Virus record (IMG/VR): IMGVR_UViG_2651869695_000003
Strand: one strand, 5' to 3'
Length of the DNA: 64,000 nt
DNA from: a virus
Lineage: Duplodnaviria > Heunggongvirae > Uroviricota > Caudoviricetes
The position numbers were made by a program, and so were the translations under genes. The stretch's first letter is position 1; each line of letters opens with the position of its first letter. Of this stretch, positions 1 through 35,599 are shown in pieces. The notes beneath the pieces were generated by a model. It ran no database searches. It had not been told where the DNA came from and saw only the letters and a list, made by a program, of their open reading frames with translations.

Positions 1-566
1 GCTGGGTGTTGTCTGTTGTGCGTCGGGATCTCGGTTTTGATGATAGTCACGTTGTGACAATACCGGAACTGTGCTGGTGGCTGATTCGTAATGACCTGGC
101 GGATGCCTTACCGGAAAGTGCAGCCCGTAAGGCACTGAGATTACCGAAGCCTGTTGTGCAGGCGGTCACCCGGGAAAGTGACCTTGTGCCTTCGGTTCCT
201 GCCACCAGCATTATCCAGGATAAAGCGAAAAAGGTGCTGGCGCTGAAAGTGGATCCGGAGTCGCTGGAGTCTTTTATGTTACGCCCAAAACGCCGCCGCT
301 GGGTTAATGAAAAGTACACGCGCTGGGTTAAGACACAGCCGTGTGCATGTTGTGGAAAGCCTGCTGATGATCCCCACCACCTGATAGGTCACGGTCAGGG
401 TGGAATGGGTACAAAAGCGCATGACCTCTTTGTGTTGCCTTTGTGCAGAAAGCATCACGACGAGCTGCATGCGGATACCGTGGCATTTGAAGAGAAGTAT
501 GGCTCCCAACTGGAGCTGATATTTCGTTTTATCGATCGCGCGCTGGCGATTGGGGTGTTGGCCTGA
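1..566 (+). CDS. DUF968-like protein with Cys/His-rich HNH-like motif, 5'-truncated by window edge
   Basis: C-terminal 186 aa of the 331-aa protein encoded in full at 46150..47145; motif CACCGKPADDPHHLIGHG...CRKHHDELH; sits just upstream of Q. Confidence 0.5.
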   Translation, partial: WVLSVVRRDLGFDDSHVVTIPELCWWLIRNDLADALPESAARKALRLPKPVVQAVTRESDLVPSVPATSIIQDKAKKVLALKVDPESLESFMLRPKRRRWVNEKYTRWVKTQPCACCGKPADDPHHLIGHGQGGMGTKAHDLFVLPLCRKHHDELHADTVAFEEKYGSQLELIFRFIDRALAIGVLA

Positions 567-583
567 TTTGGTGGAGAAAGTTG

Positions 584-949
584 ATGCGTGATATTCAGAT
601 GGTTCTGGAGCGTTGGGGAGCATGGGCGGCGAGTGATAGTTCTGGAGTAGACTATTCGCCTATAGCTGCTGGGTTTAAGGGGCTTCTTCCCTACACAAGC
701 AAAACACGTCAGGCTTGTTCAGATAGTGATGCATTAATTATTGAAGGTTGTCTTGCTCGTCTAAAGCAAAAAAAGCCAGATGAGCACTCGCTGCTTGTGG
801 CACATTATTTATACAGAATATCCAAGCGTAAGATTGCAAAGGTGCGTGGAAAGGATGAAAAATTGGTACGCATAGAAATACAACTAGCCGAAGGATTTAT
901 TGATGGTTGCCTTTCAATGTTGGATTTTAACCTTGAAATGGACGCTTAG
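584..949 (+). CDS. Antitermination protein Q (lambdoid late-gene regulator)
   Basis: N-terminus MRDIQMVLERWGAWAA recalled as Q-family signature; position between nin-like genes and the lysis cassette; ATG at 584 preferred over track start 581. Confidence 0.6.
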   Translation: MRDIQMVLERWGAWAASDSSGVDYSPIAAGFKGLLPYTSKTRQACSDSDALIIEGCLARLKQKKPDEHSLLVAHYLYRISKRKIAKVRGKDEKLVRIEIQLAEGFIDGCLSMLDFNLEMDA

Positions 950-984
950 GGTTGCACAGGTTGGCCCCATATGAGGCCAACCTG

Positions 985-1446
985 TCACAAGTGGGGGAAG
1001 ATTTTTCGTAACACTAACCAACACCTTCCGAAGGTATATAGCGAAATTATAAGGGAGGATAAGCCTAACAGTATGAACAGGAAATCAATAGGTTTGCCCG
1101 CAACAATAACATCATCAGGTAGAAACATCGCTATCAATGGAAATATACATGCGACGATGAGAGTTAACCCTGTTGAAAGTAATCTATTTACCAGAGTTGG
1201 TAACACGTTGTTTTGCTTAAGGGCATTAATTGCTCCTTCCTTATCGCTGTTTGCACTACTAAATATAGATATTGCAGCCAGAACAAAACCAAACAGGATG
1301 CCTGATATAGTCGAGAGCACCCCCGCTGTTGTGAGTACGTCAGCATGCTTCATCGGTTTAAACAGTTTTGTCGCTGCATAGGTCAACAGAATCCAGAGGA
1401 CGCATTTCCAGAGAAAAGTGGCTAATTCTCTCATTGTGTCCTCCAT
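985..1446 (-). CDS. Small integral membrane protein (about 4 predicted TM helices), candidate RexB-like partner
   Basis: 153 aa with four hydrophobic stretches; low-GC; immediately downstream of the 313-aa ORF on the same strand, opposite to phage late genes. Confidence 0.45.
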   Translation of the reverse strand: MEDTMRELATFLWKCVLWILLTYAATKLFKPMKHADVLTTAGVLSTISGILFGFVLAAISIFSSANSDKEGAINALKQNNVLPTLVNRLLSTGLTLIVACIFPLIAMFLPDDVIVAGKPIDFLFILLGLSSLIISLYTFGRCWLVLRKIFPHL

Positions 1447-1455
1447 GCTTGGTTA

Positions 1456-2397
1456 TTAGTCTCTGCTAGCGAGCTCATACTGTGCAAGATAGTTCGCGTT
1501 ATCAATTTTAGCAGATATCATCGCCGTTCTGATATCAGAATCGGATGGATAACCGCTTTTGACAATGATTGTCTTTGTACTGACCAATACTTGGTCAAGT
1601 AGACTTTTGGGCGTTCTATTGGATGGCTCTGTTACATCAATTTTTTTAATTTTTAGACCTCCAGAACCTTTTGGAAAAAGTTCAAGTAGTTCCTTAATAG
1701 CATCGGTGACAGAAGTTTTTAGATAGTTAAACCCTTGTTTTTTCGGGCGAATCCGACCTCGCATATTTAATCTTAGATGCGACCCGCCCATACCAACAAC
1801 CATGTCAATAATTTCATTAGCTAAAGGGTTTTTAATCTTATAATTAGCTTTGTTAAAGTTTCTTGGAGCAGCAACTATAAGATCGAAACTACGTAGGATA
1901 TTTCCGTCCTCAAGCAGTTCCTTCATGCTCTCTTGTTTCCAAATGGCTTCAAAAGTGACGCTTTTTAAATCAGTTTTGTTATACAAAATGAATGCCAGAT
2001 CATTTACTTTGGGCCCTATATGGTTGAGGGTCATAGCTAATAAGTCCGTTTCGTAGTAATAGATAAAATATGTTCTTTCAACTACAGAATCTTTATCATT
2101 TAAAGGAATTGTTCTCTCACTACCTGTAGCATCCTCGATGAACGGTAGTAGGCATTCCCTTCTCCACGATACGTAACCAAAGTAACATTGCAGTGTGGTA
2201 TCTTTTTGAAGAATAACTAACTTTAACCCTCGACTTGGGGTGTCTGTTGTGTAAGTTATTGGAAAAGTTACAGTATCTGCTGTGGTCATTTGCTCAAAGG
2301 CTAGTTTTGCAGCAGATGTGCCATATTTTTTGCTTCCATTACCAGTGAAAAAACCAACTCTCACTCGCCTGGTTTTATTCTTATTTTCTGTACTCAT
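1456..2397 (-). CDS. Hypothetical 313-aa protein, candidate RexA-like abortive-infection component
   Basis: Low-GC ORF in moron position between Q and holin; soluble protein followed by 4-TM protein mimics rexA-rexB architecture; similarity to RexA is by eye only. Confidence 0.4.
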   Translation of the reverse strand: MSTENKNKTRRVRVGFFTGNGSKKYGTSAAKLAFEQMTTADTVTFPITYTTDTPSRGLKLVILQKDTTLQCYFGYVSWRRECLLPFIEDATGSERTIPLNDKDSVVERTYFIYYYETDLLAMTLNHIGPKVNDLAFILYNKTDLKSVTFEAIWKQESMKELLEDGNILRSFDLIVAAPRNFNKANYKIKNPLANEIIDMVVGMGGSHLRLNMRGRIRPKKQGFNYLKTSVTDAIKELLELFPKGSGGLKIKKIDVTEPSNRTPKSLLDQVLVSTKTIIVKSGYPSDSDIRTAMISAKIDNANYLAQYELASRD

Positions 2398-2520
2398 TAT
2401 CGATCCGAAATAATTTTAGCAACCGTGTGAAAAATACAACAAAAAAAAGAGGAAATCATTAGCGCGGTCCGCAAAAAACATTGTAATCTGTTAAGAGTGG
2501 TTACTTCGCCACACAGCTTA

Positions 2521-2550
2521 AACCCGCCGTCGAGCGGGTTTTGTCGTTTC
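2521..2550 (+). terminator. Rho-independent terminator-like hairpin, candidate tR' of the late leader
   Basis: AACCCGC-cgtcga-GCGGGTT followed by TTGTCGTTTC, about 145 bp upstream of the holin start. Confidence 0.35.
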
Positions 2551-2693
2551 TGTGGCTGGGGATTCGTTGGTCCTGGCCTATTCCGCAGTTCTCCATCGGT
2601 TCGGCTTCTTTGATGTTTCCGCTTCTGATTTGCGGTACATGATGTTCCCTCAATTTGCACCTGCTGTATCAGCGAGGTGAGAGATAACTACAA

Positions 2694-3020
2694 ATGCCTC
2701 ATAACCCAAATACCTGGCTGGAGTTGGTCCAGAGCTGGTGGCGTGGAGACACACCGCTGGGCGCAGTGATTATGTCGATCGTTATGGCTGGCTTGCGCAT
2801 TGCCTATTTTGGCGGTGGTGGTGGCTGGAAACGAAAAACGCTCGAGATTTTGCTCTGTGGTGCTCTGACGCTGACTTTTGCATCCGCTCTTGAGTATGTC
2901 GGATGGCCTAAATCTCTTTCTGTTGCCATTGGTGGCGGCGTTGGGCTGATCGGGGTCGATGCTATTCGTGGGGCTGCAATGAGAGTAATCGGTAATAAGT
3001 TTGGTGGCTCTAAGGAGTAA
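2694..3020 (+). CDS. Holin
   Basis: 108 aa, hydrophobic segments, first gene of lysis cassette directly before the R-like endolysin. Confidence 0.7.
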   Translation: MPHNPNTWLELVQSWWRGDTPLGAVIMSIVMAGLRIAYFGGGGGWKRKTLEILLCGALTLTFASALEYVGWPKSLSVAIGGGVGLIGVDAIRGAAMRVIGNKFGGSKE

Positions 3021-3023
3021 TTT

Positions 3024-3506
3024 ATGCAGGTACTAAATTCCCAGCGTAAAGCTTTCCTCGATATGGTGGCATGGTCAGAAGGAACGGATAACGGGCGACA
3101 ACCGACACGTAACCACGGTTATGACGTTATTGTCGGAGGTGAACTGTTCACTGATTACTCCGATCACCCTCGCAAACTTGTCACGCTAAACCCGAAACTT
3201 AAATCAACAGCCGCAGGACGTTATCAGCTTCTTTCACGCTGGTGGGATGCTTACCGTAAGCAGCTTGGGCTGAAAGACTTCTCTCCAAAAAGCCAGGATG
3301 CTGTGGCATTGCAGCAGATTAAAGAGCGTGGTGCTTTACCGATGATTGATCGCGGCGATATCCGTCAGGCTATTGATCGTTGCAGCAATATCTGGGCGTC
3401 ATTGCCGGGCGCTGGTTATGGTCAGTTCGAACATAAGGTTGACAGCCTGATTGAAAAATTCAAAGAATCGGGCGGAACGGTCAGAGAAATTCAGCTATAT
3501 GAGTAG
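3024..3506 (+). CDS. R: Endolysin, lambda R-like lytic transglycosylase
   Basis: Near-identical over long stretches to lambda R as recalled ([92 protein letters not shown]). Confidence 0.85.
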
Positions 3507-3963
3507 AGTAACTGCGATTCTGTCCTCTCTGGTTATCTGCACCATCGTCTGCCTATCATGGGCTGTTAATCATTATCGTGATAACGCCATCGCCTACAAA
3601 GAACAGCGCGATAAAGCGAAGGAAAAACTCAGCCAGGCGAACGCCACCATTACTGAGATGCAGCAGCGCCAGCGTGATGTTTCTGCGCTCGATGCGAAAT
3701 ACACCGGAGAACTTGCAAATGCTAAAGCAACTATTGAACAGCTTCAGCGTGATGTTGCTGTTGGCACTAAGCGGCTGTTCCTCGCCGCTAGTTGCCCGAG
3801 AGTGCAATCAACGACCATTACCACCAGCCTGGATGATGCTACCGCCCCCCGACTTACTGACACCGCTCAACGGGATTATTTCACCCTCAGAGAGAGAATT
3901 GAAATCAGTTATAAACAGATAAGAGCATTGCAGGACTATATCTCTAGTCAGTGTGAAAAATAA
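3499..3963 (+). CDS. Rz: Rz i-spanin
   Basis: [31 protein letters not shown] matches lambda Rz N-terminus; start moved to internal Met overlapping R stop. Confidence 0.85.
3719..3922 (+). CDS. Rz1: Rz1 o-spanin lipoprotein, embedded in +1 frame of Rz
   Basis: Signal/lipobox LLLALSGC followed by proline-rich [26 protein letters not shown] as in lambda Rz1. Confidence 0.7.
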
Positions 3964-4044
3964 AATTGCTTTCGATGTATGGATCTGGACATCTTTTTTT
4001 TCTACTATGCTGACTGAGAATTGAAACGTATATGGATATTCTAT

Positions 4045-4803
4045 ATGAAAAGAAAAAAATTAGAAGGTCCCGGGTGTGAATCATATGAAGGGTTAGATGT
4101 TGAATATTATATTGATTCCGAAACGGGGGAATTTAAAGCGGTTTATACATTCAATAATGAAATTGTAGATCGCATAAAATTGAGTGGGCGTATTGCCGAT
4201 AGAGCATCTTCACTGTCCCTAATTCATAGGGACTTAAAAAGTGCTAAAGAGTGGTACCAAATAGCTAATGAACTGGCAGGGAGAAACGAATTAAGGACAG
4301 ATGGCAAGTTATACGGGAATATACTTGATCTAGATTTATCAAGTGAAATTAGAGCGTTATTTGTGGCAAGCCTAACGTTTTATGGTAAAGCTTTCTCTGA
4401 AGCTAAAGGGAGAAAGTTAAAGATGGAGCGTGATTGGCTTGATTCTGAATATTTTGGGTTGCATGACTGTATTATTAACTACAGGCATAATTTTGCAGCA
4501 CATAGCGGCAACCAAGACTATGAGTCAGCAGAAACTTCATTGTTACTAATAAGGAAAAATGGGAAAACATTTTATCAAGCAGTGACAGATAGAAAACAAC
4601 TGAGCATGATTGGTGTCGAGGACGAGCATGTTGATATGATTAATTTATTTGAACATGCGATACAGGTTGTTGAGAAAAAATATAATGAAACATTAGAGAG
4701 AATTAGAACCTATGTCATGCAAAAGAGTTATTCTTTTTGGTGTTTAGCTGCCACAGGGAAAGATCCCGTCAATTTAGATAAGTTAAATAAGAAGAAAAAA
4801 TAA
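4045..4803 (+). CDS. Hypothetical protein, AT-rich moron (candidate abortive-infection or defence gene)
   Basis: Low GC compared with flanking phage genes; followed by a candidate terminator (4840..4869); lies between Rz and HNH/terS; contains YRHNFAAH (R-x5-H). Confidence 0.5.
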   Translation: MKRKKLEGPGCESYEGLDVEYYIDSETGEFKAVYTFNNEIVDRIKLSGRIADRASSLSLIHRDLKSAKEWYQIANELAGRNELRTDGKLYGNILDLDLSSEIRALFVASLTFYGKAFSEAKGRKLKMERDWLDSEYFGLHDCIINYRHNFAAHSGNQDYESAETSLLLIRKNGKTFYQAVTDRKQLSMIGVEDEHVDMINLFEHAIQVVEKKYNETLERIRTYVMQKSYSFWCLAATGKDPVNLDKLNKKKK

Positions 4804-4839
4804 ACCTACTCTTCACATTAGTAACATTAGTAGATGCTA

Positions 4840-4869
4840 AGCCACTAGCAATCGATGGTGGCTTTTTTA
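4840..4869 (+). terminator. Rho-independent terminator after moron gene
   Basis: AGCCAC-loop-GTGGCT followed by TTTTTTATT. Confidence 0.5.
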
Positions 4870-4882
4870 TTGGAGCTTACCA

Positions 4883-5233
4883 ATGCCACCACGAACCCCA
4901 AAAGCCTGCCGTGTTCGCGGCTGCCGCTCTACAACCACAGACCCGTCAGGCTACTGCGAAAGCCACAAAAGCGAAGGCTGGAAGCAATACAAGCCAGGTC
5001 AGTCCCGTCATCAGCGCGGTTATGGTTCGAAGTGGGACGCTATCCGCGCGCGTGTGCTGAAGCGTGACAAAGGTTTATGTCAGTTATGTCTGCGTGCCGG
5101 TGTGGTGCGTGAGGCGAAAACCGTTGACCACATCATCCCTAAAGCGCATGGCGGCACTGATGCCGACTGTAATCTGCAGAGTCTGTGTTGGCCGTGTCAT
5201 AAGGCGAAGACGGCCCGTGAACGGTTAAAGTGA
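4883..5233 (+). CDS. HNH endonuclease (terminase-associated)
   Basis: Cys/His motifs CRVRGC...C and DHIIPKAHGG...CWPCH; directly upstream of cos-like region and terS as in HK97-like phages. Confidence 0.8.
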   Translation: MPPRTPKACRVRGCRSTTTDPSGYCESHKSEGWKQYKPGQSRHQRGYGSKWDAIRARVLKRDKGLCQLCLRAGVVREAKTVDHIIPKAHGGTDADCNLQSLCWPCHKAKTARERLK

Positions 5234-5239
5234 TAATAA

Positions 5240-5340
5240 CTCTCAACTGTCTGAGGGGAGGGGCGGGTCACATCCCTGTGACCTGACGTCTTCCGGACTG
5301 CCCGCCCCATCGTTTTTTTATACCCGCGAAAAATGAAATT
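5240..5340. other. Candidate cos / packaging site region
   Basis: GC-rich dyad GGGGCGGG...CCCGCCCC enclosing palindrome GTCACAtcccTGTGAC between HNH and terS. Confidence 0.3.
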
Positions 5341-5358
5341 TAACCAGGAGTGCCGCAT

Positions 5359-5853
5359 ATGGCTGGAACGACGGGGCGTTCCGGGCGTCGCCCCAAGCCA
5401 ACGGCGCGCAAGGCGCTGGCCGGAAATCCCGGCAAGCGAGCCCTGAACAAAGATGAACCTGTTTTTACGCCCATCAAAGGTGTTGAGCCACCGGAGTGGT
5501 TCGCTGAAGAAGATCTCCCTCTCGCCACGATCATGTGGCAACTGACAACCAAAGAACTCTGCGGTCAGGGCCTGCTGTGCGTGACTGACCTCGCGGTGCT
5601 TGAGCGGTGGTGCGTGGCCTACGAGTTCTGGCGACGTGCCGTGAAAAATATTGCCAGACAGGGCAACACCATCACCGGTGCAATGGGCGGTATGGTCAAA
5701 AATCCGGAGCTGACCGCCAAAAAAGAACAGGAGTCCGAGATGAGCAGTACGGGGGCAATGCTCGGACTCGACCCCAGCAGCCGCCAGCGTCTGATTGGCC
5801 TGGCGGGGAAGAAGAAAGCCACTAACCCGTTTCTGAAAATCATCGAATCATGA
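5359..5853 (+). CDS. Terminase small subunit
   Basis: Basic N-terminus, immediately upstream of and overlapping terL; ATG at 5359 with GGAG upstream. Confidence 0.7.
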
Positions 5854-7583
5854 GCCGGAAATCTTACCCCAACGTAAATGCTGCCAATCAGTATGCCCGG
5901 GATGTCGTGCGCGGAAAGATTGTGGCCTGCCAGTTTGTGATTCAGGCCTGCCAGCGCCATCTTGATGACCTGATGGCGGAAAAAAGTAAGTCGTTTCGTT
6001 ACCGCTTCGACAAGGACCTGGCTGAACGGGCCGCCAAATTTATTCAGCTGTTGCCGCACACCAAGGGTGAGTGGGCATTCAAGAGGATGCCCATCACGCT
6101 GGAGCCGTGGCAGCTCTTTGTGATCTGCTGCGCGTTTGGCTGGGTCAATAAAGGCTCCCGGCTGCGCCGCTTCAGGGAGGTGTATACCGAAATCCCCCGT
6201 AAGAACGGCAAATCGGCAATCTCTGCCGGTGTCGCTCTGTATTGTTTTGCCTGTGATAACGAGTTCGGCGCGGAAGTGTATTCCGGTGCCACGACGGAGA
6301 AACAGGCATGGGAAGTCTTTCGCCCGGCGCGACTGATGTGTAAACGCACACCAATGCTGACGGAAGCGTTCGGGATTGAGGTTAACGCCTCAAACATGAA
6401 CCGTCCGGAGGATGGCGCGCGGTTTGAACCGCTGATCGGTAACCCCGGTGATGGTTCATCACCCCACTGTGCGGTGGTGGATGAATATCACGAGCACGCC
6501 ACCGATGCGCTTTACACCACGATGCTTACCGGGATGGGGGCGCGACGTCAGCCACTGATGTGGGCCATTACTACTGCCGGGTACAACATTGAGGGGCCGT
6601 GCTACGACAAGCGGCGGGAAGTTATCGAGATGCTCAACGGGTCGGTGCCTAACGATGAACTGTTCGGGATCATCTATACCGTTGATGAAGGTGACGACTG
6701 GACCGACCCGCAGGTGCTGGAAAAAGCCAATCCAAATATTGGCGTGTCGGTTTATCGCGAATTTTTGTTAAGTCAGCAACAGCGTGCGAAAAATAACGCC
6801 CGTCTGGCAAACGTCTTTAAAACAAAACACCTCAATATCTGGGTGTCGGCGCGTTCGGCGTATTTCAACCTGGTGAGCTGGCAGAGCTGCGAGGATAAAT
6901 CACTGACCCTTGAGCAGTTCGAGGGGCAGCCGTGCATTCTGGCCTTTGACTTGGCGCGTAAACTGGATATGAACAGCATGGCGCGACTTTATACCCGCGA
7001 GATTGACGGTAAAACGCATTACTACAGTGTGGCCCCGCGTTTCTGGGTACCGTATGACACGGTGTACAGCGTCGAGAAAAATGAAGATCGACGGACAGCC
7101 GAACGCTTTCAGAAATGGGTGGAAATGGGCGTTCTGACCGTTACCGATGGTGCGGAAGTGGATTATCGCTACATCCTCGAGGAGGCCAAAGCGGCGAACA
7201 AAATCAGCCCGGTCAGTGAGTCACCCATCGACCCCTTCGGGGCGACCGGGCTGTCACATGACCTTGCTGATGAAGACCTGAACCCCATCACTATCATTCA
7301 GAACTACACCAACATGTCCGATCCGATGAAAGAGCTGGAAGCGGCAATTGAATCGGGGCGCTTTCATCATGATGGCAATCCCATCATGACCTGGTGTATC
7401 GGCAACGTGGTCGGCAAAACCATTCCGGGTAACGATGATGTGGTGAAGCCCGTCAAAGAGCAGGCGGAAAACAAAATCGATGGTGCAGTTGCGCTGATTA
7501 TGGCGGTTGGCAGAGCCATGCTGTACGAGAAAGAAGACACGCTGTCTGACCACATTGAGTCCTATGGGATCCGCTCGCTTTAA
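5850..7583 (+). CDS. Terminase large subunit
   Basis: 577 aa; ATPase-like motifs (RKNGKS, VVDEYHE) and nuclease domain; canonical position. Confidence 0.9.
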
Positions 7584-7594
7584 CTGAGGTAATT

Positions 7595-7777
7595 ATGATC
7601 ATGCTGATTCTCGCGCCTCTGGTGGGCGTGCTGGGGGCGCTTTTGCTGGCGTATGGTGCCTGGCTGATTTATCCCCCGGCGGGGTTTGTTGTTGCCGGGG
7701 CGTTGTGTCTGTTCTGGTCGTGGCTGGTGGCGCGATATCTCGACCGTACACAGTCGTCTGTCGGCGGAGGTAAATAG
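7595..7777 (+). CDS. Small hydrophobic protein
   Basis: 60 aa, two hydrophobic segments, between terL and portal. Confidence 0.4.
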
Positions 7778-9018
7778 TGTTCTTTTCGGGATTATTTCAA
7801 CGAAAAAGTGACGCACCAGTGACCACGCCAGCAGAGCTGGCGGATGCTATCGGGTTGTCCTACGACACCTATATCGGAAAGCAGATCAGCAGCCAGCGGG
7901 CCATGCGACTGACGGCGGTTTTTTCCTGCGTCAGGGTGCTGGCAGAGTCGGTCGGGATGTTGCCCTGCAATCTGTATCACCTGAACGGCAGCCTGAAAAA
8001 GAGAGCCACCGGCGAGCGTCTGCATAAGCTGATCTCCACGCATCCCAATGGCTATATGACGCCGCAGGAGTTCTGGGAGCTGGTGGTCACCTGTCTGTGC
8101 TTGCGGGGAAACTTTTACGCCTACAAAGTGAAAGGATTTGGCGAAGTGGCTGAACTGCTGCCCGTCGATCCCGGCTGTGTGGTACCGAAGCTTAACAGTA
8201 GCTGGGAGCCGGTCTATCAGGTCACATTCCCGGACGGCTCCACGGATGTACTGAGCCAGGAAGATATCTGGCATGTGCGCACGCTGACGCTGGACGGTCT
8301 GGTGGGACTGAATCCCATCGCCTATGCCCGCGAGGCAATATCGCTGGCAGCTGCGACCGAAGAGCACGGGGCCAGACTGTTCAGCAATGGTGCGGTGACG
8401 TCCGGTGTGTTGCGTACAGAGCAGACGCTGTCGGATCAGGCTTATGAGCGCCTGAAGAAAGATTTTGAGGAGCGTCACACCGGGCTTGGCAATGCTCACC
8501 GCCCGATGATCCTTGAGATGGGGCTGGACTGGAAGTCGATGGCGCTGAACGCCGAGGACAGCCAGTTCCTGGAAACCCGCAAGTTTCAGCTTGAAGAAAT
8601 CTGTCGTCTGTTCCGGGTGCCATTGCACATGGTGCAGAACACCGATCGCGCCACCTTCAACAATATCGAAGAGCTGGGGCTGGGATTTATCAACTATTCA
8701 CTGGTGCCGTATCTGACCCGCATTGAGCAGCGGATCAACACCGGACTGGTACGAAAAAGTAAGCAGGGCGTTTATTACGCCAAATTTAACGCCGGGGCGT
8801 TACTGCGCGGGGATATGAAGTCCCGTTTTGAAGCCTACGCCACCGGTATCAACTGGGGAATTTACTCTCCCAATGACTGCCGCGACCTGGAAGATATGAA
8901 TCCGCGTCCCGGTGGGGATGTCTATCTCACGCCGATGAATATGACCACGAAACCCTCCGATGGCAGTAAAGCCGGTAAGCAGAAGGATAACGCCAATGCA
9001 GACGAAACAACGTCTTGA
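7777..9018 (+). CDS. Portal protein (HK97 family)
   Basis: 413 aa; follows terminase; GTG start overlapping previous stop. Confidence 0.85.
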   Translation: MFFSGLFQRKSDAPVTTPAELADAIGLSYDTYIGKQISSQRAMRLTAVFSCVRVLAESVGMLPCNLYHLNGSLKKRATGERLHKLISTHPNGYMTPQEFWELVVTCLCLRGNFYAYKVKGFGEVAELLPVDPGCVVPKLNSSWEPVYQVTFPDGSTDVLSQEDIWHVRTLTLDGLVGLNPIAYAREAISLAAATEEHGARLFSNGAVTSGVLRTEQTLSDQAYERLKKDFEERHTGLGNAHRPMILEMGLDWKSMALNAEDSQFLETRKFQLEEICRLFRVPLHMVQNTDRATFNNIEELGLGFINYSLVPYLTRIEQRINTGLVRKSKQGVYYAKFNAGALLRGDMKSRFEAYATGINWGIYSPNDCRDLEDMNPRPGGDVYLTPMNMTTKPSDGSKAGKQKDNANADETTS

Positions 9019-9646
9019 TGTACCGCTGAGTCTGAAATCTGTCAGTGACTCCGGTGAGTTTGAAGGGTATGGCTCCGTCTTTGGTGTAAAGGACAGCCAC
9101 GATGATGTGGTGATGTCCGGGGCATTTGCTGCTTCCCTGCGGGCGTGGAGTGACAGAAAAGCGTTACCTGCGCTGCTCTGGCAGCACCGCATGGATGAGC
9201 CCATCGGTGTTTACACCGAAATGAAGGAAGACGATGTCGGGCTTTACGTCAGGGGGCGATTGCTCATTGATGATGATCCCCTGGCAAAACGCGCACATGC
9301 ACACATGAAGGCCGGTTCGTTAACCGGCCTTTCTATTGGGTACGTCCTGAAGGACTGGGAATACGACCGGACGAAAGAAGCCTTTCTGCTGAAAGAAATC
9401 GACCTCTGGGAAGTCAGTCTGGTGACGTTCCCGTCTAACGACGAGGCACGGATCAGCGACGTCAAGAACGCGCTGGCTCGCGGGGAAATCCCCGAACAGA
9501 AAAAAATCGAAAGAGTCCTGCGTGATGTCGGACTCTCCCGTACCCAGGCCAAAGCATTCATGGCCGGGGGCTATAGCGCACTGTCCCTGCGCGACGCTGA
9601 GGATGTGAGCTCTGCACTGAATGCACTGAAAAATCTGAACTTCTAA
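8996..9646 (+). CDS. Prohead (head maturation) protease
   Basis: Between portal and major capsid protein; start set to internal Met with AAGGA upstream. Confidence 0.75.
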   Translation: MQTKQRLDVPLSLKSVSDSGEFEGYGSVFGVKDSHDDVVMSGAFAASLRAWSDRKALPALLWQHRMDEPIGVYTEMKEDDVGLYVRGRLLIDDDPLAKRAHAHMKAGSLTGLSIGYVLKDWEYDRTKEAFLLKEIDLWEVSLVTFPSNDEARISDVKNALARGEIPEQKKIERVLRDVGLSRTQAKAFMAGGYSALSLRDAEDVSSALNALKNLNF

Positions 9647-9660
9647 TCAGGAGAAATACG

Positions 9661-10866
9661 ATGGCGGTAGATATTAAAGATGTCGAACAGGTCGCGCAGG
9701 AGCTGCAGCAGAAGTTTGACGACTTCAAAGCAAAGAACGACAAGCGCGTGGATGCGATTGAGCAGGAAAAAGGCAAGCTTGCCGGACAGGTGGAAACCCT
9801 GAACGGGAAACTCAGCGAGCTGGAAAATCTCAAAAGCGACCTTGAAAAAGAGCTGCTTGAGCTGAAACGTCCGGCAGGTGGATCGCAAAATAAACTGGCC
9901 ACCGAGCATAAAGAGGCGTTTGTGGGCTTCCTGCGTAAAGGCCGTGAAGACGGTCTGCGCGATCTGGAGCGTAAGGCATTGCAGGTGGGCACCGATGAAG
10001 ACGGTGGCTACGCCGTGCCGGAAGAACTGGATCGCAACATTCTTAACCTGCTGAAAGATGAAGTGGTGATGCGTCAGGAAGCCACGGTGATCACCGTTGG
10101 CGGTTCCGACTACAAAAAACTGGTGAATCTGGGCGGTACGGCTTCCGGATGGGTGGGGGAAACGGATACGCGATCCCAGACTGCCACCTCCAGACTGGAG
10201 CTGATTGAACCTCTCATGGGGGAAATCTACGGCAACCCGCAGGCTACCCAGAAAATGCTGGACGATGCCTTCTTCAACGTGGAGGCCTGGATCAACAGCG
10301 AGCTGGCGACCGAATTTGCCGAACAGGAAGAAATTGCCTTTACCACCGGCGATGGTACCAAGAAGCCAAAAGGGTTCCTGGCGTATGAATCTACTGATGA
10401 AACCGATAAGATCCGGGCGTTCGGCAAACTTCAGCATATTGTATCCGGCGAAGCGACCGCGGTGACCGCAGACGCCATTATCAAACTGATTTACACGCTG
10501 CGTAAGGCACACCGCACTGGCGCGAAGTTCATGATGAACAACAACAGCCTGTTTGCCATCCGTCTGCTGAAAGACACCGAGGGTAACTATCTGTGGCGTC
10601 CGGGGCTGGAACTGGGGCAGCCGTCCTCTCTGGCGGGTTACGGTATCGCTGAAAACGAACAGATGCCGGATATCGCCGCTGATGCGAAAGCCATTGCATT
10701 TGGTAACTTCAAACGGGGTTACACCATCGTTGACCGTATCGGCACCCGCATTCTGCGTGACCCGTACACCAATAAACCGTTTGTCGGTTTTTATACCACC
10801 AAGCGCACCGGCGGGATGCTGGTCGATTCGCAGGCCATCAAACTGCTGAAGATTGCAGCGGCGTAA
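9661..10866 (+). CDS. Major capsid protein (HK97 fold) with N-terminal coiled-coil delta domain
   Basis: 401 aa; coiled-coil N-terminus then capsid core; follows protease. Confidence 0.85.
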   Translation: MAVDIKDVEQVAQELQQKFDDFKAKNDKRVDAIEQEKGKLAGQVETLNGKLSELENLKSDLEKELLELKRPAGGSQNKLATEHKEAFVGFLRKGREDGLRDLERKALQVGTDEDGGYAVPEELDRNILNLLKDEVVMRQEATVITVGGSDYKKLVNLGGTASGWVGETDTRSQTATSRLELIEPLMGEIYGNPQATQKMLDDAFFNVEAWINSELATEFAEQEEIAFTTGDGTKKPKGFLAYESTDETDKIRAFGKLQHIVSGEATAVTADAIIKLIYTLRKAHRTGAKFMMNNNSLFAIRLLKDTEGNYLWRPGLELGQPSSLAGYGIAENEQMPDIAADAKAIAFGNFKRGYTIVDRIGTRILRDPYTNKPFVGFYTTKRTGGMLVDSQAIKLLKIAAA

Positions 10867-10873
10867 TCACTCA

Positions 10874-10894
10874 GGGGCGCGGAACCGCGCCCCC
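10874..10894 (+). terminator. GC-rich hairpin after capsid gene
   Basis: GGGGCGCGG-aa-CCGCGCCCC; no strong T-tract, so likely a stabilising or partial terminator. Confidence 0.3.
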
Positions 10895-10915
10895 TGTTCT
10901 GACGGGTGAAGAATC

Positions 10916-11116
10916 ATGATCCTGAAACAAGATCTGAAATGGTCACCGGACGGTATGCGTGTTGAGGTCATTCGGGCCGGTGAGTATGACGACGGGGCGC
11001 TTCCTGCCCGGGTGCAGGAGATTGCACTTCAGGCCGGGTTAGCAGAGCGCGGAATCAGTGCAAAAAGCAGTAAAGCGGCAAAAGAGAAAAAAGCCACGAC
11101 CAGTAAAGAGGGCTGA
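10916..11116 (+). CDS. Hypothetical small protein
   Basis: 66-aa ORF between capsid and head-tail connector genes. Confidence 0.35.
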   Translation: MILKQDLKWSPDGMRVEVIRAGEYDDGALPARVQEIALQAGLAERGISAKSSKAAKEKKATTSKEG

Positions 11117-11118
11117 GT

Positions 11119-11442
11119 ATGCTTCTGACAATGGAAGAGATTAAAGCCCAACTCCGGCTGGATGAGGATTTCGATGCTGATGACCGCCATCTGCAACTGC
11201 TGGCCTGTGCGGCACAAAAGCGGACGGAAACGTATCTGAACCGGAAGCTCTATGCACCGGATGAAACCATTCCGGACAGCGATCCGGACGGGCTGCACCT
11301 GCCGGATGATATTCGTCTGGGGATGCTGATGCTTATCAGCCATTTTTACGAAAACCGCTCGTCGGTTACGGAAGTGGAGAAACTCGACATGCCGCAGAGT
11401 TTTGGCTGGCTTGTCGGCCCGTACAGGTACTTTCCGCAATGA
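11119..11442 (+). CDS. Head-tail connector (gp6-like)
   Basis: 107 aa, position after capsid, overlapping stop-start with next gene. Confidence 0.55.
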   Translation: MLLTMEEIKAQLRLDEDFDADDRHLQLLACAAQKRTETYLNRKLYAPDETIPDSDPDGLHLPDDIRLGMLMLISHFYENRSSVTEVEKLDMPQSFGWLVGPYRYFPQ

Positions 11443-11849
11443 AAATTCGTCAGGCGCAGACCAGCGCAACCTACATTCTGCCGGACCCCGGTGAACTGAA
11501 TAAACGCGTCCTGATCCGCCAGCGGGTGGATATGCCCGCGGATAACTTTGGCGTGGAGCCTCAATACCCGGTTACGTTCCGGACATGGGCGAAGGTTATC
11601 CAGACCAGTGCCACCACCTGGCAGGAAACCGCGCAGACCGGGGACGCCATCACCCATTACATCACCATTCGTTACCGCCGGGGGATCACCGCTGATTATG
11701 AGGTGGTCTGCGGTGACAGTGTGTACCGGGTGAAACGTCAGCGCGATCTGAACGGGGCGCGGCGCTTTCTGCTGCTGGAGTGTACGGAGCTGGGCGAATG
11801 TGGGCAGAGTCACGGAGGCAACAATGACGACTTCCTTTTTGCACGTTGA
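11439..11849 (+). CDS. Head closure / head-tail adaptor protein
   Basis: 136 aa, synteny. Confidence 0.5.
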   Translation: MKIRQAQTSATYILPDPGELNKRVLIRQRVDMPADNFGVEPQYPVTFRTWAKVIQTSATTWQETAQTGDAITHYITIRYRRGITADYEVVCGDSVYRVKRQRDLNGARRFLLLECTELGECGQSHGGNNDDFLFAR

Positions 11850-12330
11850 TTTTCAGCAGCCCGCGGAGATGCGCTTTAACCGCGCCCGTGTCCGGCGGGC
11901 GTTTGTCACGATTGGTCAGCGTCATATGCGTGATGCCCGTCGGCTGGTGATGCGCCGTGCGCGGTCGGCACCGGGTGAAAACCCCGGTTATCAGACCGGA
12001 CGCCTGGCTCGTTCGATTGGTTACATGGTACCCAGAGCCAGTAAACATCGCCCTGGTTTTATGGCACGTATAGCCCCTAACCAGCGTAATGGAGAGGGAA
12101 ACCGCCGTATCACCGGTGATTTTTATCCGGCTTTTTTGTTCTATGGCGTGAGGCGAGGGGCAAAGCGTCGTCGCAGCCATCATCGTGGTGCATCCGGTGG
12201 CAGCGGCTGGCGACTGGCTCCACGTAATAACTTCATGGTGGAAACGCTTGAAAAGAACCGCAGCTGGACACGCTATTTTCTGGCGCGGGAATTGCGTAAA
12301 TCACTGAAGCCGGAGCGACGACACAGATGA
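11824..12330 (+). CDS. HK97 gp10-like tail-component protein
   Basis: Synteny; ATG with GGAGG upstream. Confidence 0.5.
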   Translation: MTTSFLHVDFQQPAEMRFNRARVRRAFVTIGQRHMRDARRLVMRRARSAPGENPGYQTGRLARSIGYMVPRASKHRPGFMARIAPNQRNGEGNRRITGDFYPAFLFYGVRRGAKRRRSHHRGASGGSGWRLAPRNNFMVETLEKNRSWTRYFLARELRKSLKPERRHR

Positions 12331-12887
12331 AACTGACGCCTGTTATTGCTGCACTGCGTGCCCGCTGTCCATATTTTGAAAACCGGGTTGCAGGCGCGGC
12401 CCAGTTCAAAAATCTGCCGGAGGTCGGAAAGCTGAAACTCCCGGCGGCATATGTTGTACCGGGTGATGATTCTCCGGGAGAAAACAAAAGCCAGACCGAC
12501 TACTGGCAGGAGCTGAAAGAGGGCTTCTCCGTGGTTGTCATACTGAGTAACGGGCGTGATGAGCGCGGTCAGTTTGCTTCGTATGATGTGGTGGACGATG
12601 TCCGGCAGATGCTCTTTAAGGCCCTGCTGGGCTGGAACCCGGAAGCGTGCGGTAACCCGATTAACTATGACGGCGGCACGCTGCTGGATCTGAATCGTCA
12701 TGAGCTGATTTATCAGTTCGATTTTTCGATCATCAGCGAGCTGACCGAAGACGATACCCGCCAGCAGGATGACCTGAACAGTCTGGATGAACTGCGAACG
12801 CTGGCGATTGATGTTGATTATCTCGATCCCGGTAACGGGCCTGACGGCGATATCGAACATCACACCGAAATAACCCTTCCTTCCTGA
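12327..12887 (+). CDS. Tail protein (Mu gp37-like, possible tail terminator)
   Basis: 186 aa directly upstream of sheath gene. Confidence 0.4.
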   Translation: MKLTPVIAALRARCPYFENRVAGAAQFKNLPEVGKLKLPAAYVVPGDDSPGENKSQTDYWQELKEGFSVVVILSNGRDERGQFASYDVVDDVRQMLFKALLGWNPEACGNPINYDGGTLLDLNRHELIYQFDFSIISELTEDDTRQQDDLNSLDELRTLAIDVDYLDPGNGPDGDIEHHTEITLPS

Positions 12888-13049
12888 GAATCTTCATGTT
12901 TGTGAAACCTGTTAAAGGGCGGTCAGTGCCTGACCCTGCCCGCGGTGACCTTTTGCCCGCCGAAGGGCGAAATGTTGACGAGAACAACTACTGGCTGCGC
13001 CGTGAAGCAGCGGGTGATATCCGGCGCGTGAATAAAAAGGTGAACACCG

Positions 13050-14546
13050 ATGACGATAAGCTTTAACACCATTCCGTCGAATACGCTGGTTCCGCTGTTT
13101 TATGCGGAAATGGATAACCAGGCGGCGAATACTGCACAGGACAACGGAGCATCGCTGCTGATTGGTCATGCCAATAACGGTGCAGAGATTGTTGCCAACA
13201 GTCTGGTGCTGATGCCGTCGGCAGACTATGCACGCCAGATTTGTGGTGCGGGAAGTCAGCTGGCGCGTATGGTCGAGGCTTATCGCCAGACCGACCCGTT
13301 TGGTGAGCTGTATGTGATTGCCGTTCCGGAAGCCACAGGCGCGGCGGCAACGGTTACGCTGACGGTGACCGGGGAAGCAACCGAAAGCGGCACGGTGAAT
13401 GTCTATGTGGGACGTACCCGCGTGCAGGCTCCGGTGACCAACGGCGATAACGTCACGACGATTGCCAGCAGTATCAAAGATGCCATCAATGCCGTTCCGA
13501 CTCTGCCGTTTACAGCTTCATCTTCGGCTGGCGTGGTCACACTGACCGCGCGTCATAAGGGGCTTTGCGGGAATGAAATTCCTGTCAGCCTCAATTACTA
13601 CGGCTTCGGTGGGGGCGAAGTGCTGCCAGCGGGCGTACAGATTGCCGTGGCGACGGGGAACGCCGGAACGGGCGCTCCTGTTCTCACCGGCGCGGTGGCT
13701 GCAATGGCGGATGAGCCGTTTGATTATATCGGCCTGCCGTTCAACGACACGGCCTCCGTTAACACGCTGGTGACCGAGATGAACGATACCAGCGGTCGCT
13801 GGAGCTATGCGCGTCAGCTGTATGGTCATGTGTATACGGCAAAGATCGGCACGCTGTCAGAACTGGTGACCGCAGGTGACCAGTTTAACCAGCAGCACAT
13901 TACCCTAGCGGGGTACGAAAAAGACACCCAGACGCCTGCCGACGAGCTGGCGGCAAGCCGTACCGCCCGCGCAGCGGTGTTTATCCGCAACGATCCGGCA
14001 CGTCCCACGCAGACCGGTGAGCTGGTGGGTATGCTGCCTGCGCCGAAGGGGAAACGGTTCACGATGACCGAGCAGCAGACCCTGCTGTCTCATGGCGTGG
14101 CAACGGCGTATGTCGAAAGCGGGGTGCTGCGCATTCAGCGTGATGTCACCACGTACAGGAAAAATGCTTACGGGGTTGCGGATAACAGCTACCTCGACAG
14201 CGAGACGCTGCATACCAGTGCGTATGTACTGCGCAAACTGAAATCCGTCATTACCAGTAAGTACGGGCGTCACAAGCTTGCCAGCGACGGTACCCGCTTT
14301 GGTCCCGGTCAGGCGATTGTCACCCCGGCGGTAATCAAAGGGGAACTGCTGGCAACCTACCGTCAGCTTGAGCGTGCGGGGATCGTGGAAAACTACGAAC
14401 TGTTTAAGCAGTACCTGGTTGTGGAGCGTGATGCCAGCGATCCGAACCGCCTGAACACGCTGTTCCCGCCTGACTATGTTAACCAGTTGCGTGTTTTTGC
14501 CGTGGTTAACCAGTTCCGTCTTCAGTATTCAGAGGAGTCTGCATAA
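13050..14546 (+). CDS. Contractile tail sheath protein
   Basis: 498 aa, followed by tube, chaperone with frameshift, and tape measure. Confidence 0.75.
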   Translation: MTISFNTIPSNTLVPLFYAEMDNQAANTAQDNGASLLIGHANNGAEIVANSLVLMPSADYARQICGAGSQLARMVEAYRQTDPFGELYVIAVPEATGAAATVTLTVTGEATESGTVNVYVGRTRVQAPVTNGDNVTTIASSIKDAINAVPTLPFTASSSAGVVTLTARHKGLCGNEIPVSLNYYGFGGGEVLPAGVQIAVATGNAGTGAPVLTGAVAAMADEPFDYIGLPFNDTASVNTLVTEMNDTSGRWSYARQLYGHVYTAKIGTLSELVTAGDQFNQQHITLAGYEKDTQTPADELAASRTARAAVFIRNDPARPTQTGELVGMLPAPKGKRFTMTEQQTLLSHGVATAYVESGVLRIQRDVTTYRKNAYGVADNSYLDSETLHTSAYVLRKLKSVITSKYGRHKLASDGTRFGPGQAIVTPAVIKGELLATYRQLERAGIVENYELFKQYLVVERDASDPNRLNTLFPPDYVNQLRVFAVVNQFRLQYSEESA

Positions 14547-14902
14547 TGGCCCGTATCGGGGGAACCTGTTATTTCAAAATTGACGGTCAGCAGCTATCGC
14601 TGACCGGCGGCATTGAGGTGCCCATGAACAGGACGGTCAATGATGACATCATCGGCCTGGACGGTTCAGTGGACCGCAAGGAAACTCACCGTGCGCCTTA
14701 TGTCAAAGGGACCTTCAAGGTGCCGAAGAATTTTCCGGTGAGCAAAATCACCTCGTCTGATGAGATGACCATCACTGCCGAGCTGGCGAACGGTCAGGTC
14801 TATGTATTGTCGTCCGCCTGGCTGCACGGAGAAGCGAACCATAATGCCGAAGAAGGCACGGTTGATCTTGAGTTCCACGGTGAAGAAGGGGATTACCAGT
14901 AA
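14546..14902 (+). CDS. Tail tube protein
   Basis: 118 aa directly after sheath. Confidence 0.65.
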   Translation: MARIGGTCYFKIDGQQLSLTGGIEVPMNRTVNDDIIGLDGSVDRKETHRAPYVKGTFKVPKNFPVSKITSSDEMTITAELANGQVYVLSSAWLHGEANHNAEEGTVDLEFHGEEGDYQ

Positions 14903-15171
14903 TGAAAGAGCTTGAGTTAAAGAAACCGATTATCGCTCATGGTGAGACACTCTCCGTACTGGAGTTTGATGAACCCACCGGGAAGGATGTCCGCGAGCTG
15001 GGGTATCCCTACCAGATGAATCAGGATGAGTCCGTCAGACTTCTGGCGCATGTGGTGTCGAAATACATTGTGCGGCTGGCGAAAGTGCCGCAAAGCTCTG
15101 TCGACCAGATGTCTCCGGCAGACCTGAATGCAGCGGCGTGGCTTGTGGCTGGTTTTTTCCTCCAGGCCTGA
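14902..15171 (+). CDS. Tail assembly chaperone (extended to 15320 by -1 frameshift)
   Basis: 89-aa ORF overlapped by a -1 frame ORF (15138..15320) that runs into the tape measure start. Confidence 0.6.
   Translation: MKELELKKPIIAHGETLSVLEFDEPTGKDVRELGYPYQMNQDESVRLLAHVVSKYIVRLAKVPQSSVDQMSPADLNAAAWLVAGFFLQA
15153..15159 (+). other. Slippery heptamer T_TTT_TTC for -1 programmed frameshift
   Basis: Zero-frame codons GGT TTT TTC near end of chaperone ORF; -1 frame stays open to 15320. Confidence 0.5.
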
Positions 15172-15312
15172 CGGCTGAATACCTCACTGATCGCTTCTTT
15201 GACTGCGCCAGTTACTGGCGCATTAATCCCTTCGAATTGCTGAATATGCCGATCAGTGAAATTCCCTTGCTGGTCAGTCAGGCAAACAGGATAGAGCAGG
15301 AGAAACGCACAC

Positions 15313-17148
15313 ATGGCTGAATTTGAGCTTAAGGCGTTGATCACCGGTGTCGACAGGCTTTCTCCCGCGCTGTCGAAAATGCAAAAGAAAATCCGGGGAT
15401 TTAAACGCCAGGCGGAAGAAGCGTCACAGGGTGGGCTGGCGCTTGGTGGCGGACTGGCAGCGGGTCTGACGCTTTCCCTGAAATCTTATGCCGATCAGGA
15501 AAACGCCGCCACCGGGCTGAAAGTCGCCATGATGGATGCGAACGGCGAGGTTGGAAAGAGCTTTCAGGACATCAATAAACTGGCTATTGGCCTGGGTAAC
15601 CAGCTACCCGGTACAACGGCTGATTTCCAGAACATGATGCAGATGCTGGTGCGTCAGGGGATCCCGGCAGAAAACATTCTTGGTGGTGTGGGTAAAGCGA
15701 CAGCTTATCTTGCGGTACAACTGAAAAAAACACCGGAAGCGGCTGCTGAGTTTGCTGCAAAGATGCAGGATGCTACCGGAACGGCGTCAGAAGACATGAT
15801 GGGGCTGTTCGACACTATCCAGAAGGCGTTTTATCTGGGCGTTGATGATACCAACATGTTGTCCTTCTTCACTAAAACCAGTTCTGTTCTGAAAATGGTG
15901 AATAAGGACGGTCTTCAGGCTGCACAGAGTCTTGCCCCCATCAGTGTCATGATGGATCAGATGGGGATGAACGGGGAGTCGGCAGGTAATGCCCTGCGAA
16001 AAGTTATCCAGTCCGGATTAAGCGTTAAGAAAATCAGGGACGTCAATAAAATCATGGCCCGCCAGAAACTCGGGGTACAGCTCGATTTTACTGATGGCAA
16101 AGGGAGTTTTGGCGGTCTTGATAACATGTTCAGGCAACTGGCAAAGCTGCGAAAACTGACCGACGTTAAGCGAACCGGTGTACTTAAGGCAATATTTGGT
16201 GATGATGCCGAAACCCTTCAGGTGGTCAATGCGCTGATCGATAAAGGAAAGGATGGCTACGATCAGATCCAGCAGAAGATGAATAAACAGGCCAGCCTGA
16301 ATAAACGTGTTCAGGCTCAGCTTGGTACGCTGTCCAACCTGTGGGAGGCAATGACGGGGACCGCAACTAACGGCCTTGCGGCTATTGGCGGCGCATTTTC
16401 TGGTGACGCTAAAAATATCACGCAATGGCTGGGGGAGTTAGGGGAAAAATTCACGAAGTTTGCGGATGAAAATCCCCGGGTTATTCGCGGCGTCGTCGGG
16501 CTTGCTGCCGGTCTTGCGATTCTGAAACTGGGATTGATGGGCGTTGGCGGTGCCATCAGTATTGTCAGCAGGATCATGTCGATGACGCCGATTGGCATGA
16601 TTGCGACGGCGATAGCCCTGGCTGCGGGATTAATTATCACTAACTGGGATGTTGTCGGACCTTATTTTAAGAAACTCTGGGAAACCATTGGTCCTTATTT
16701 TGAGACTGGCTGGGAACTTCTTAAGAAGGTTTTTGCCTGGTCGCCGCTGGGGATGGTGATCAATAACTGGGGACCGGTTGTTAAGTGGTTTCAGGATATG
16801 TGGGACAAGCTGAAGCCAATTATTGAGTGGTTTACCGACAGTTCCGGTGACACGGTCGATGCCATTAACTCTGCGCAGTGGGGCGCGGGTGCTTATGATG
16901 CTTATGGGACGGGAATACCGGCGCGGGGATACACACCTTATCCGGCGGTAGATCCGGCTCAGTCAAACAACGCCTCCGATGCCACAGGCCTGAATCCCTT
17001 CATGATTAACAAAGCTTCTGCGCCAAAAGTTGATGGTGAGATCAAGGTCTCTTTTGTGAATTCGCCTCCGGGTATGCGGGTTATGGAAACGCGATCCAGC
17101 GGTTTTGATGTCAGCCATGATGTTGGCTATACGCGCTTTGGCAGGTAA
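15313..17148 (+). CDS. Tail tape measure protein
   Basis: 611 aa with Gly/Ala-rich and hydrophobic segments. Confidence 0.8.
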   Translation: MAEFELKALITGVDRLSPALSKMQKKIRGFKRQAEEASQGGLALGGGLAAGLTLSLKSYADQENAATGLKVAMMDANGEVGKSFQDINKLAIGLGNQLPGTTADFQNMMQMLVRQGIPAENILGGVGKATAYLAVQLKKTPEAAAEFAAKMQDATGTASEDMMGLFDTIQKAFYLGVDDTNMLSFFTKTSSVLKMVNKDGLQAAQSLAPISVMMDQMGMNGESAGNALRKVIQSGLSVKKIRDVNKIMARQKLGVQLDFTDGKGSFGGLDNMFRQLAKLRKLTDVKRTGVLKAIFGDDAETLQVVNALIDKGKDGYDQIQQKMNKQASLNKRVQAQLGTLSNLWEAMTGTATNGLAAIGGAFSGDAKNITQWLGELGEKFTKFADENPRVIRGVVGLAAGLAILKLGLMGVGGAISIVSRIMSMTPIGMIATAIALAAGLIITNWDVVGPYFKKLWETIGPYFETGWELLKKVFAWSPLGMVINNWGPVVKWFQDMWDKLKPIIEWFTDSSGDTVDAINSAQWGAGAYDAYGTGIPARGYTPYPAVDPAQSNNASDATGLNPFMINKASAPKVDGEIKVSFVNSPPGMRVMETRSSGFDVSHDVGYTRFGR

Positions 17149-17208
17149 TGAAAAATTAATCTGTTAATGAGTCCCACTCCGGTGGGATTTTTTATGTACG
17201 GAGTTTAT

Positions 17209-22206: not shown

Positions 22207-22209
22207 TCC

Positions 22210-24506: not shown

Positions 24507-24509
24507 GGA

Positions 24510-29507: not shown

Positions 29508-29567
29508 ATAAACTCCGTACATAAAAAATCCCACCGGAGTGGGACTCATTAACAGATTAATTTTTCA

Positions 29568-35597: not shown

Positions 35598-35599
35598 AC

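Follow-up and report, generated by a model that had tools for sequence, protein, structure and literature searches.

Results

Gene content and composition of the locus

The window, by which we mean the whole 64,000-nucleotide stretch of phage DNA that was analysed, contains an ORF of 252 aa in an SfI/HK97-like prophage of E. coli, a relative of phage SfI. The ORF is situated between the lysis genes and the packaging genes, with the following features in and around it.

2694..3020, lambda-family holin, upstream of the 252-aa ORF
3024..3506, endolysin, upstream of the 252-aa ORF
ending at 3963, Rz, containing an embedded Rz1 with lipobox
3964..4044, plus strand, AT-rich upstream spacer of 81 nt with a weak Shine-Dalgarno sequence
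3974..4001, plus strand, weak 5-bp hairpin followed by T8, 3' of Rz, not counted as functional
4045..4803, plus strand, 252-aa ORF (RefSeq WP_001407090.1, 'hypothetical protein'; phrog_8440)
4839..4870, plus strand, intrinsic-terminator-like hairpin between the ORF and HNH, with a 9-bp stem and an 8-nt loop, then TTTTTT
4883..5233, HNH endonuclease, downstream of the 252-aa ORF
41913..42671, minus strand, mirror copy of the 252-aa ORF inside a 22,514-bp perfect inverted repeat

The original prediction correctly placed the ORF between Rz/Rz1 and HNH. The spacers measure 81 nt toward Rz and 79 nt toward HNH, and the HNH gene is followed by a P27-family small terminase, TerL, the portal and an HK97-type head module. 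The ORF is a real gene, and its start at ATG 4045 is backed by PGAP and by homologues: the longest-frame call begins at TTG 4021 and gives 260 aa, RefSeq PGAP chose ATG 4045 in an identical prophage, and this codon pairs with a GTG in a 60%-identical homologue. The much lower GC content claimed for the ORF was also borne out, as it amounts to 0.354 compared to 0.494 in the lysis cassette and 0.552 in the HNH-TerL region, with GC3 at 0.31 compared to 0.65 in TerL. Of all segments of the same size in the 64 kb, only 2.4% are as AT-rich. The composition of the ORF is therefore foreign. In composition, and in being present in some related phages but missing or replaced in others, the 252-aa ORF fits a moron in the Hendrix/Juhala sense.

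The gene had further been described as bracketed by terminator-like hairpins, and of these only the downstream one stands. The hairpin at 4839..4864 folds with -12.8 kcal/mol (z = -2.65; 2 of 200 shuffles fold equally well), is picked up by a terminator scan and is convincing as a terminator. The hairpin at 3974..4001, rightly noted from the outset to be a weak 5-bp stem, is at chance level (-3.2 kcal/mol, z = +0.43; 128 of 200 shuffles equally good) and is not called by the scan. No sigma-70-like promoter with more than 8 of 12 matches was found in 3964..4044, and the ORF runs in the direction of the Q-dependent late operon. In another prophage (L022), a 60%-identical homologue occupies the equivalent slot with a gap of 19 nt to HNH, and there is no trace of a terminator between the two. 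The picture of an autonomous moron consequently holds in its composition, its presence/absence polymorphism and its downstream terminator but falls short in its upstream hairpin and promoter; with no promoter found and no terminator in L022, the arrangement of promoter, gene and terminator is only half supported for the window copy.

The window protein has no Pfam match at E ≤ 1 and no match among the PADLOC-DB v2 HMMs, and a PHROG scan assigns it to phrog_8440, 'unknown function'. Searching 133 family members against PADLOC-DB v2 returned only scattered single matches at chance level. RefSeq and PHROGs thus already list the family as a hypothetical protein, and Pfam and PADLOC lack it; a literature search found no paper on the family of WP_001407090.1 / phrog_8440.

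The mirror copy

The gene was originally reported as duplicated at 41913..42671. That copy is the minus-strand half of a perfect inverted repeat and not a separate gene duplication. BLAST self-comparison of the window revealed that 1..22514 and 24202..46715 are exact reverse complements of each other, the left arm running past the window start; a direct-repeat search is blind to the mirror copy, which is inverted. The spacer of the repeat (22515..24201, 1,687 bp) encodes a pair of alternative C-termini for the tail fibre and has two tail-fibre-assembly genes in opposed orientation. Codons 1-101 of the tail-fibre gene are common to both arms, and arm identity ends just past ...CTCGAAAACCTTGGTTTGGGAGAAGC. 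The centre of the repeat is a Pin-type invertible tail-fibre segment. The same prophage is present in the complete E. coli R12 genome, where the invertible segment is followed by the invertase gene pinE, a methyltransferase/restriction pair and ssrA; the window does not extend to pinE. Because complete genomes hold one copy (the gene is single-copy in 23 of the 23 complete E. coli genomes carrying it), the mirror arrangement is almost certainly an assembly foldback, and the copy at 41913..42671 is therefore no independent duplication. The simplest explanation would be an assembly path that ran into the invertible segment and came out through the same constant region in reverse orientation.

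The Rz-HNH interval and other cargo

The interval from the spanin genes to HNH and the terminase is a hot spot for cargo. Related E. coli prophages (H60-H64) have iss, a KilA-N/DUF6979 pair or other hypothetical genes in the Rz-HNH interval, and phage SfI has an unrelated ORF of 124 aa there (L001 1983..2357). The original statement that lambda carries bor at this position is in agreement with the presence of iss, a bor homologue, in the slot of one of these prophages (H60). The gene itself was found in 23 of 5426 E. coli genomes. Homologues with 50% and 60% identity lie between the spanin and small terminase genes in two more lambdoid lineages with other packaging modules, so that the family uses the Rz-to-terminase slot in three lambdoid lineages.

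Other regions of this phage type also appear to carry cargo. A second AT-rich cassette (985..2397, minus strand, GC 0.39), mirrored in the other arm, is situated between the Q antiterminator and the holin and encodes a 313-aa protein (phrog_7651), then a 153-aa multi-pass membrane protein (phrog_8552), neither with a Pfam or PADLOC match. The L022 prophage carries the Kiwa genes KwaA-KwaB in the equivalent slot and strand; a relationship of the cassette to Kiwa was rejected, as its proteins have no similarity to KwaA or KwaB. The cassette is a candidate for an uncharacterised two-gene defence system. At the right end of the E. coli R12 prophage, by ssrA (L024 6061..10525; NZ_CP066740 1180060..1184524), pinE is accompanied by a hypothetical gene, a DNA cytosine methyltransferase and a type II restriction endonuclease, the latter pair being more defence cargo on this phage type. 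Two AT-rich stretches in the early, integrase-proximal part of the prophage (55000..56200 and 57400..58000, GC 0.29-0.34) are probably additional foreign cargo.

Protein family and conserved residues

A word-indexed search recovered 197 relatives, none of them carrying a name other than 'hypothetical', in Enterobacteriaceae, Pseudomonas, Burkholderia and Vibrio. An exhaustive profile search extended the family to 879 representatives (50% clustering, E ≤ 1e-3), single-domain proteins of about 225-290 aa when complete, and a scan of species-representative genomes yielded 39 loci, chiefly in Beta- and Gammaproteobacteria. Conservation was assessed in an alignment of 133 members that are 19-60% identical to the window protein. 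Only five residues are invariant (Y113, R123, H140, R147 and H153), while D63, W70, K115, G122, A152 and G155 are nearly so. The YRHNFAAH motif (R147-x5-H153) is encoded at 4480..4503, and the codons of the invariant residues are as follows.

4381-4383, plus strand, Y113 codon, invariant
4411-4413, plus strand, R123 codon, invariant
4462..4464, plus strand, H140 codon, invariant His two helical turns ahead of R147
4483..4503, plus strand, codons of the Rx5H motif R147-H-N-F-A-A-H153, with R147 and H153 invariant in 133 homologues

Judged from this alignment, the R-x5-H arrangement is the most conserved feature of the family. The residue after the motif arginine is H148 in the window protein and H or N in homologues (RHNFAAH, RNNFAAH, RNKYVAH). 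At four loci (L045, L057, L061 and L063) the homologues are truncated or split into two ORFs and are apparent pseudogenes. Truncation and splitting are common for costly or toxic accessory genes.

Predicted fold and relation to HEPN domains

The motif had been proposed to be of the HEPN RNase type, and the protein an abortive-infection toxin. HEPN domains are four-helix up-down bundles with frequent inserts between helices 2 and 3, in which an Rx4-6H motif falls where helix 3 ends or the loop to helix 4 begins and a polar residue (N, D or H) follows the motif arginine (Anantharaman et al., PMC3710099). An AlphaFold2 model of the window protein, built from a 46-sequence alignment (pLDDT 86, pTM 0.82), predicts three N-terminal strands (4-7, 13-23 and 30-36), helices at 49-80, 96-115, 134-152, 198-225 and 229-237, and a beta-hairpin at 160-185, right after the motif; in Csx1, too, a beta-hairpin directly follows the HEPN motif (PMC3710099). 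R147, H148 and H153 lie on either side of the point where predicted helix 3 (134-152) ends at its C-terminus, and helices 2 and 3 are separated by an insert, a loop that contains G122 and the invariant R123. The protein thus combines a predicted four-helix up-down core with an Rx4-6H motif at the end of helix 3, a polar residue after the arginine (H148) and family-wide conservation of the motif R and H. On the strength of the model, the fold may be described as HEPN-like, with the motif predicted to lie at the HEPN-defining position, and under the HEPN criterion the conservation of the motif would imply catalysis. Many, not all, HEPN families have a second conserved acidic residue in helix 2 (Ex3[KR]). 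No acidic residue of helix 2 (96-115) is invariant in the present family, the near-invariant D63 being located in helix 1; helix 2 closes with the near-invariant K115.

Sequence comparison gave a fainter signal. The window protein reached no significant profile match to an established HEPN family. When the 133 members were scanned against Pfam one by one, the most recurrent sub-threshold match was HEPN_AbiU2 (PF18734), found in 4 of the 133 with a best E of 0.036. Concatenates of members were used to place the match: in three members, positions 111-143 of the 193 in the AbiU2 profile align to the 'HDxxxxxR[NH]xxxAHSG' stretch, that is, helix 3 and the motif (LSKEFREDHDFYMNLRNKYVAHSG in P0133, EKYRELHDHCIRHRNNYTAHSGAEKI in P0129 and EHRASHDRYIKLRHNFAAHSGIDAHEGSR in P0153). 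An artificial concatenate of four members scored 26.1 bits against the AbiU2 gathering threshold of 26.8 bits. These matches are weak and non-independent, since the sequences are related, yet they land on the motif. Membership of AbiU2 was rejected, as the scores of single members are all under the 26.8-bit threshold and the window protein is unmatched. A relationship to AbiV was likewise rejected, as hhalign gave a probability of 0.2% when the family was compared with a true AbiV encoded next to a homologue. The family profile found nothing at E ≤ 10 among all PDB sequences, and Foldseek found no match below E 0.1 in PDB or BFVD; the best structural matches for the helical core were HepT toxins (PDB 7ae2, 5yep and 8xdj). 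The HEPN proposal is partly supported and withstood the tests applied to it. It is favoured by invariance, position at the helix 3 end, the polar residue, the AbiU2 alignments and the solo cargo setting, and is opposed by the lack of a significant HEPN profile match.

The same evidence bears on a possible, though somewhat unlikely, alternative, namely that the protein is a helical bundle mimicking HEPN and that Y113, R123, H140, R147 and H153 form another catalytic or ligand site, for example of a phosphoesterase or a nucleotide-binding protein, whose role could still lie in phage-host conflict. The empty Foldseek searches of PDB and BFVD and the sub-threshold HEPN profiles would agree with this, as would the position of the invariant Y113, R123 and H140 outside the canonical motif. 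It is countered by the motif itself, which matches the HEPN definition in position, spacing and the polar residue after the arginine, and by the alignment of the AbiU2 profile onto it.

Genomic contexts of homologues

In Pseudomonas prophages the homologue is an isolated early-region gene on the opposite strand; with this orientation, such homologues need their own promoters. In coliphage 2H10 the homologue directly follows the integrase, in a filamentous phage (inovirus) of Vibrio cyclitrophicus it follows zot and bears the depositor's note 'endonuclease', and a Mu-like Pseudoalteromonas prophage also carries it. A Comamonas sp. MAG (L047 2392..5356) shows a same-strand row of DUF4145, Abi_alpha, the family gene and HEPN_AbiV, which is a compact abortive-infection island. 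The homologue adjoins a pair of PIN and AAA_15/DUF3696 ATPase genes in Massilia, and a Tlde1-domain gene in Burkholderia. In Nitrincola lacisaponensis, a 970-aa protein without a Pfam match at E ≤ 0.001 is encoded immediately 3' of the homologue (L038 4819..7731); by eye, its N-terminus ('WDLHVHTP') is PHP-like and 'GGKSSGKS' is Walker-A-like, and it may be a defence-type neighbour.

When the flanking ORFs at 42 loci were clustered all against all, every neighbour family was confined to three loci or fewer, and those reaching three were the lambdoid Q and DUF968, approximately 3 kb off. The lack of a recurrent neighbour marks the gene as a solo module exchanged among mobile elements and islands of the defence type.

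Discussion

We consider, with moderate confidence, that the window gene represents a new family of solo HEPN-like RNases, which act as prophage-borne abortive-infection proteins. The locus presents a real and conserved gene of foreign composition in a cargo slot, with no partner gene, whose product has an invariant R/H motif and a predicted HEPN-like fold. It was shown only recently that the prophage-encoded solo HEPN proteins HepS and Tha are immune proteins that combine sensor and effector in themselves (PMC13043305, PMC11087260). HepS is an inactive tetramer that is activated by the tail-tip protein J and cuts tRNA anticodon loops (PMC13043305). By analogy, we propose for the family RNase activity, a dimeric active site, a trigger, an Abi phenotype and expression in the lysogen. 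The gene is exchangeable cargo of prophages and defence islands. In the proposed mechanism, the protein, with a predicted four-helix core behind a small N-terminal beta element, would be made in the lysogen and, in the window phage, at least from the late transcript as well. At rest it would be an inactive oligomer until a component of an infecting phage activates it. The active protein would cleave RNA (tRNA, rRNA or mRNA) without metal, and this would halt translation and abort the infection. The HEPN/Abi reading is put forward with caution, in view of the lack of a significant HEPN profile match, the lack of a promoter and the one relative wired into a late operon.

The packing of the L022 homologue into the late operon without a terminator would fit a function in the lytic cycle as well. 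Such a HEPN-like RNase would be expressed from the Q-dependent late transcript and serve the phage during lytic growth rather than defend the lysogen, possibly through shut-off of host or competitor RNA, late superinfection exclusion or countering of host defence. We regard this as unlikely. The gene is indeed embedded in the late operon and co-oriented with it, its own promoter was not detected upstream of the ORF, the L022 homologue is terminator-free at 19 nt from HNH, and the family adjoins lysis genes in three lambdoid lineages and in a Mu-like prophage. However, in Pseudomonas prophages, 2H10, the Vibrio inovirus and chromosomal islands the homologues have a strand of their own or lie outside late operons, and several of these loci are among Abi genes, which argues for autonomous expression and a host-protective role. 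The occurrence in 23 of 5426 E. coli genomes is, moreover, a patchiness typical of accessory cargo and not what a lytic-cycle function would show.

A more speculative proposal, to which we assign a rather low probability, is that of a new effector class on a HEPN-like scaffold, in which the invariant pentad and the beta-sheet addition would form a distinct active or sensor site. Such a protein would differ from a classical HEPN RNase and could be a self-contained late-operon sensor-effector that tells late proteins of the resident phage apart from those of an intruder, or could attack a substrate other than RNA.

It is highly improbable that the protein acts as a toxin alongside an overlooked antitoxin, be it a small ORF or an RNA. 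The closest structural matches are the HepT toxins of HEPN/MNT pairs, and at some Pseudomonas loci the gene is followed by small ORFs on its own strand, but no neighbour is conserved across the 42 loci, a nearby MNT gene is absent, and the flanks in the window are Rz and HNH with spacers of only 81 nt and 79 nt. On the grounds of these flanks and the lack of a conserved neighbour, membership of HEPN/MNT (HepT-MntA) as a toxin with an adjacent antitoxin was rejected. A Bor/Iss-like lysogenic-conversion factor for virulence or fitness, to which the iss gene in the Rz-HNH slot of another E. coli prophage might point, is scarcely credible for a predicted cytoplasmic helical bundle that has no signal peptide, lipobox context or Bor/Iss similarity and whose family extends to environmental Beta- and Gammaproteobacteria and marine Vibrio inoviruses.

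The favoured interpretation, a solo HEPN-like abortive-infection RNase, concerns a family of approximately 879 clusters at 50% identity in Gamma- and Betaproteobacteria, carried by temperate phages of at least five kinds, the filamentous and Mu-like among them. If the protein is an Abi RNase, the family constitutes a new defence system that consists of a single gene and is easy to test. A new HEPN architecture would come with it, consisting of Rx5H, a post-motif beta-hairpin and additional invariant His, Arg and Tyr residues, and the cargo hot spot between lysis and packaging genes in lambdoid phages would gain a defined rationale. If it is no RNase, the invariant pentad signals a novel activity.

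Comparison with known systems

The likeness to lambda bor and E. coli iss is confined to the slot 3' of Rz and to the insertion of a single AT-rich gene. The proteins are unrelated: Bor/Iss is an outer-membrane lipoprotein, and a Bor/Iss-like lipoprotein was rejected for the 252-aa protein owing to the absence of a lipobox context and an unrelated predicted fold. In addition, lambda bor is transcribed from the opposite strand, whereas the 252-aa ORF is co-oriented with the late operon.

HepT of the HEPN/MNT type VII toxin-antitoxin systems resembles the window protein in its helical core and in the R...H motif at the end of helix 3. Unlike HepT, the 252-aa gene has no adjacent MNT antitoxin gene, and its product has about 110 extra residues and an Rx5H-S-G motif in place of Rx4HxY with its AMPylated tyrosine. 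AbiU2 (PF18734), a Lactococcus abortive-infection gene family (Anantharaman et al. 2013, PMC3710099), is the only Pfam family recurring among the members and is likewise an abortive-infection HEPN family, but the similarity is limited to about 25-30 residues and leaves the N-terminal strands and the beta-hairpin of the 252-aa protein uncovered.

Tha-1 and Tha-2, tail-activated proteins of S. aureus prophages (PMC11087260), share with the window protein the prophage-encoded HEPN effector and an Abi-like logic. They differ in their length of 301 aa, their C-terminal HEPN domain and their RNSIMH (Rx4H) motif, and Tha and its inhibitor Ith form a pair in a non-contiguous operon, whereas the 252-aa gene has no conserved partner at 42 loci. 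HepS (STM14_3211 of Salmonella Gifsy-1, 'HEPN Solo'; PMC13043305) is also a single small HEPN protein encoded without a partner in a lambdoid accessory slot. Its gene is situated between replication and antirepressor genes in Gifsy-1 and the 252-aa gene after Rz, its motif is Rx4H at 100-105 compared to Rx5H at 147-153, and the 252-aa protein has extra N-terminal beta-strands and a post-motif beta-hairpin. No sequence similarity between the two is detectable (family profile against PDB chains, E ≤ 10), and the LT2 Gifsy-1 record contains no ORF with R100/H105; with no detectable homology and a motif that differs from Rx4H near residue 100, membership of the HepS family was rejected. The window protein is thus conceptually near HepS and Tha, and is unusual in its architecture and its Rx5H motif.
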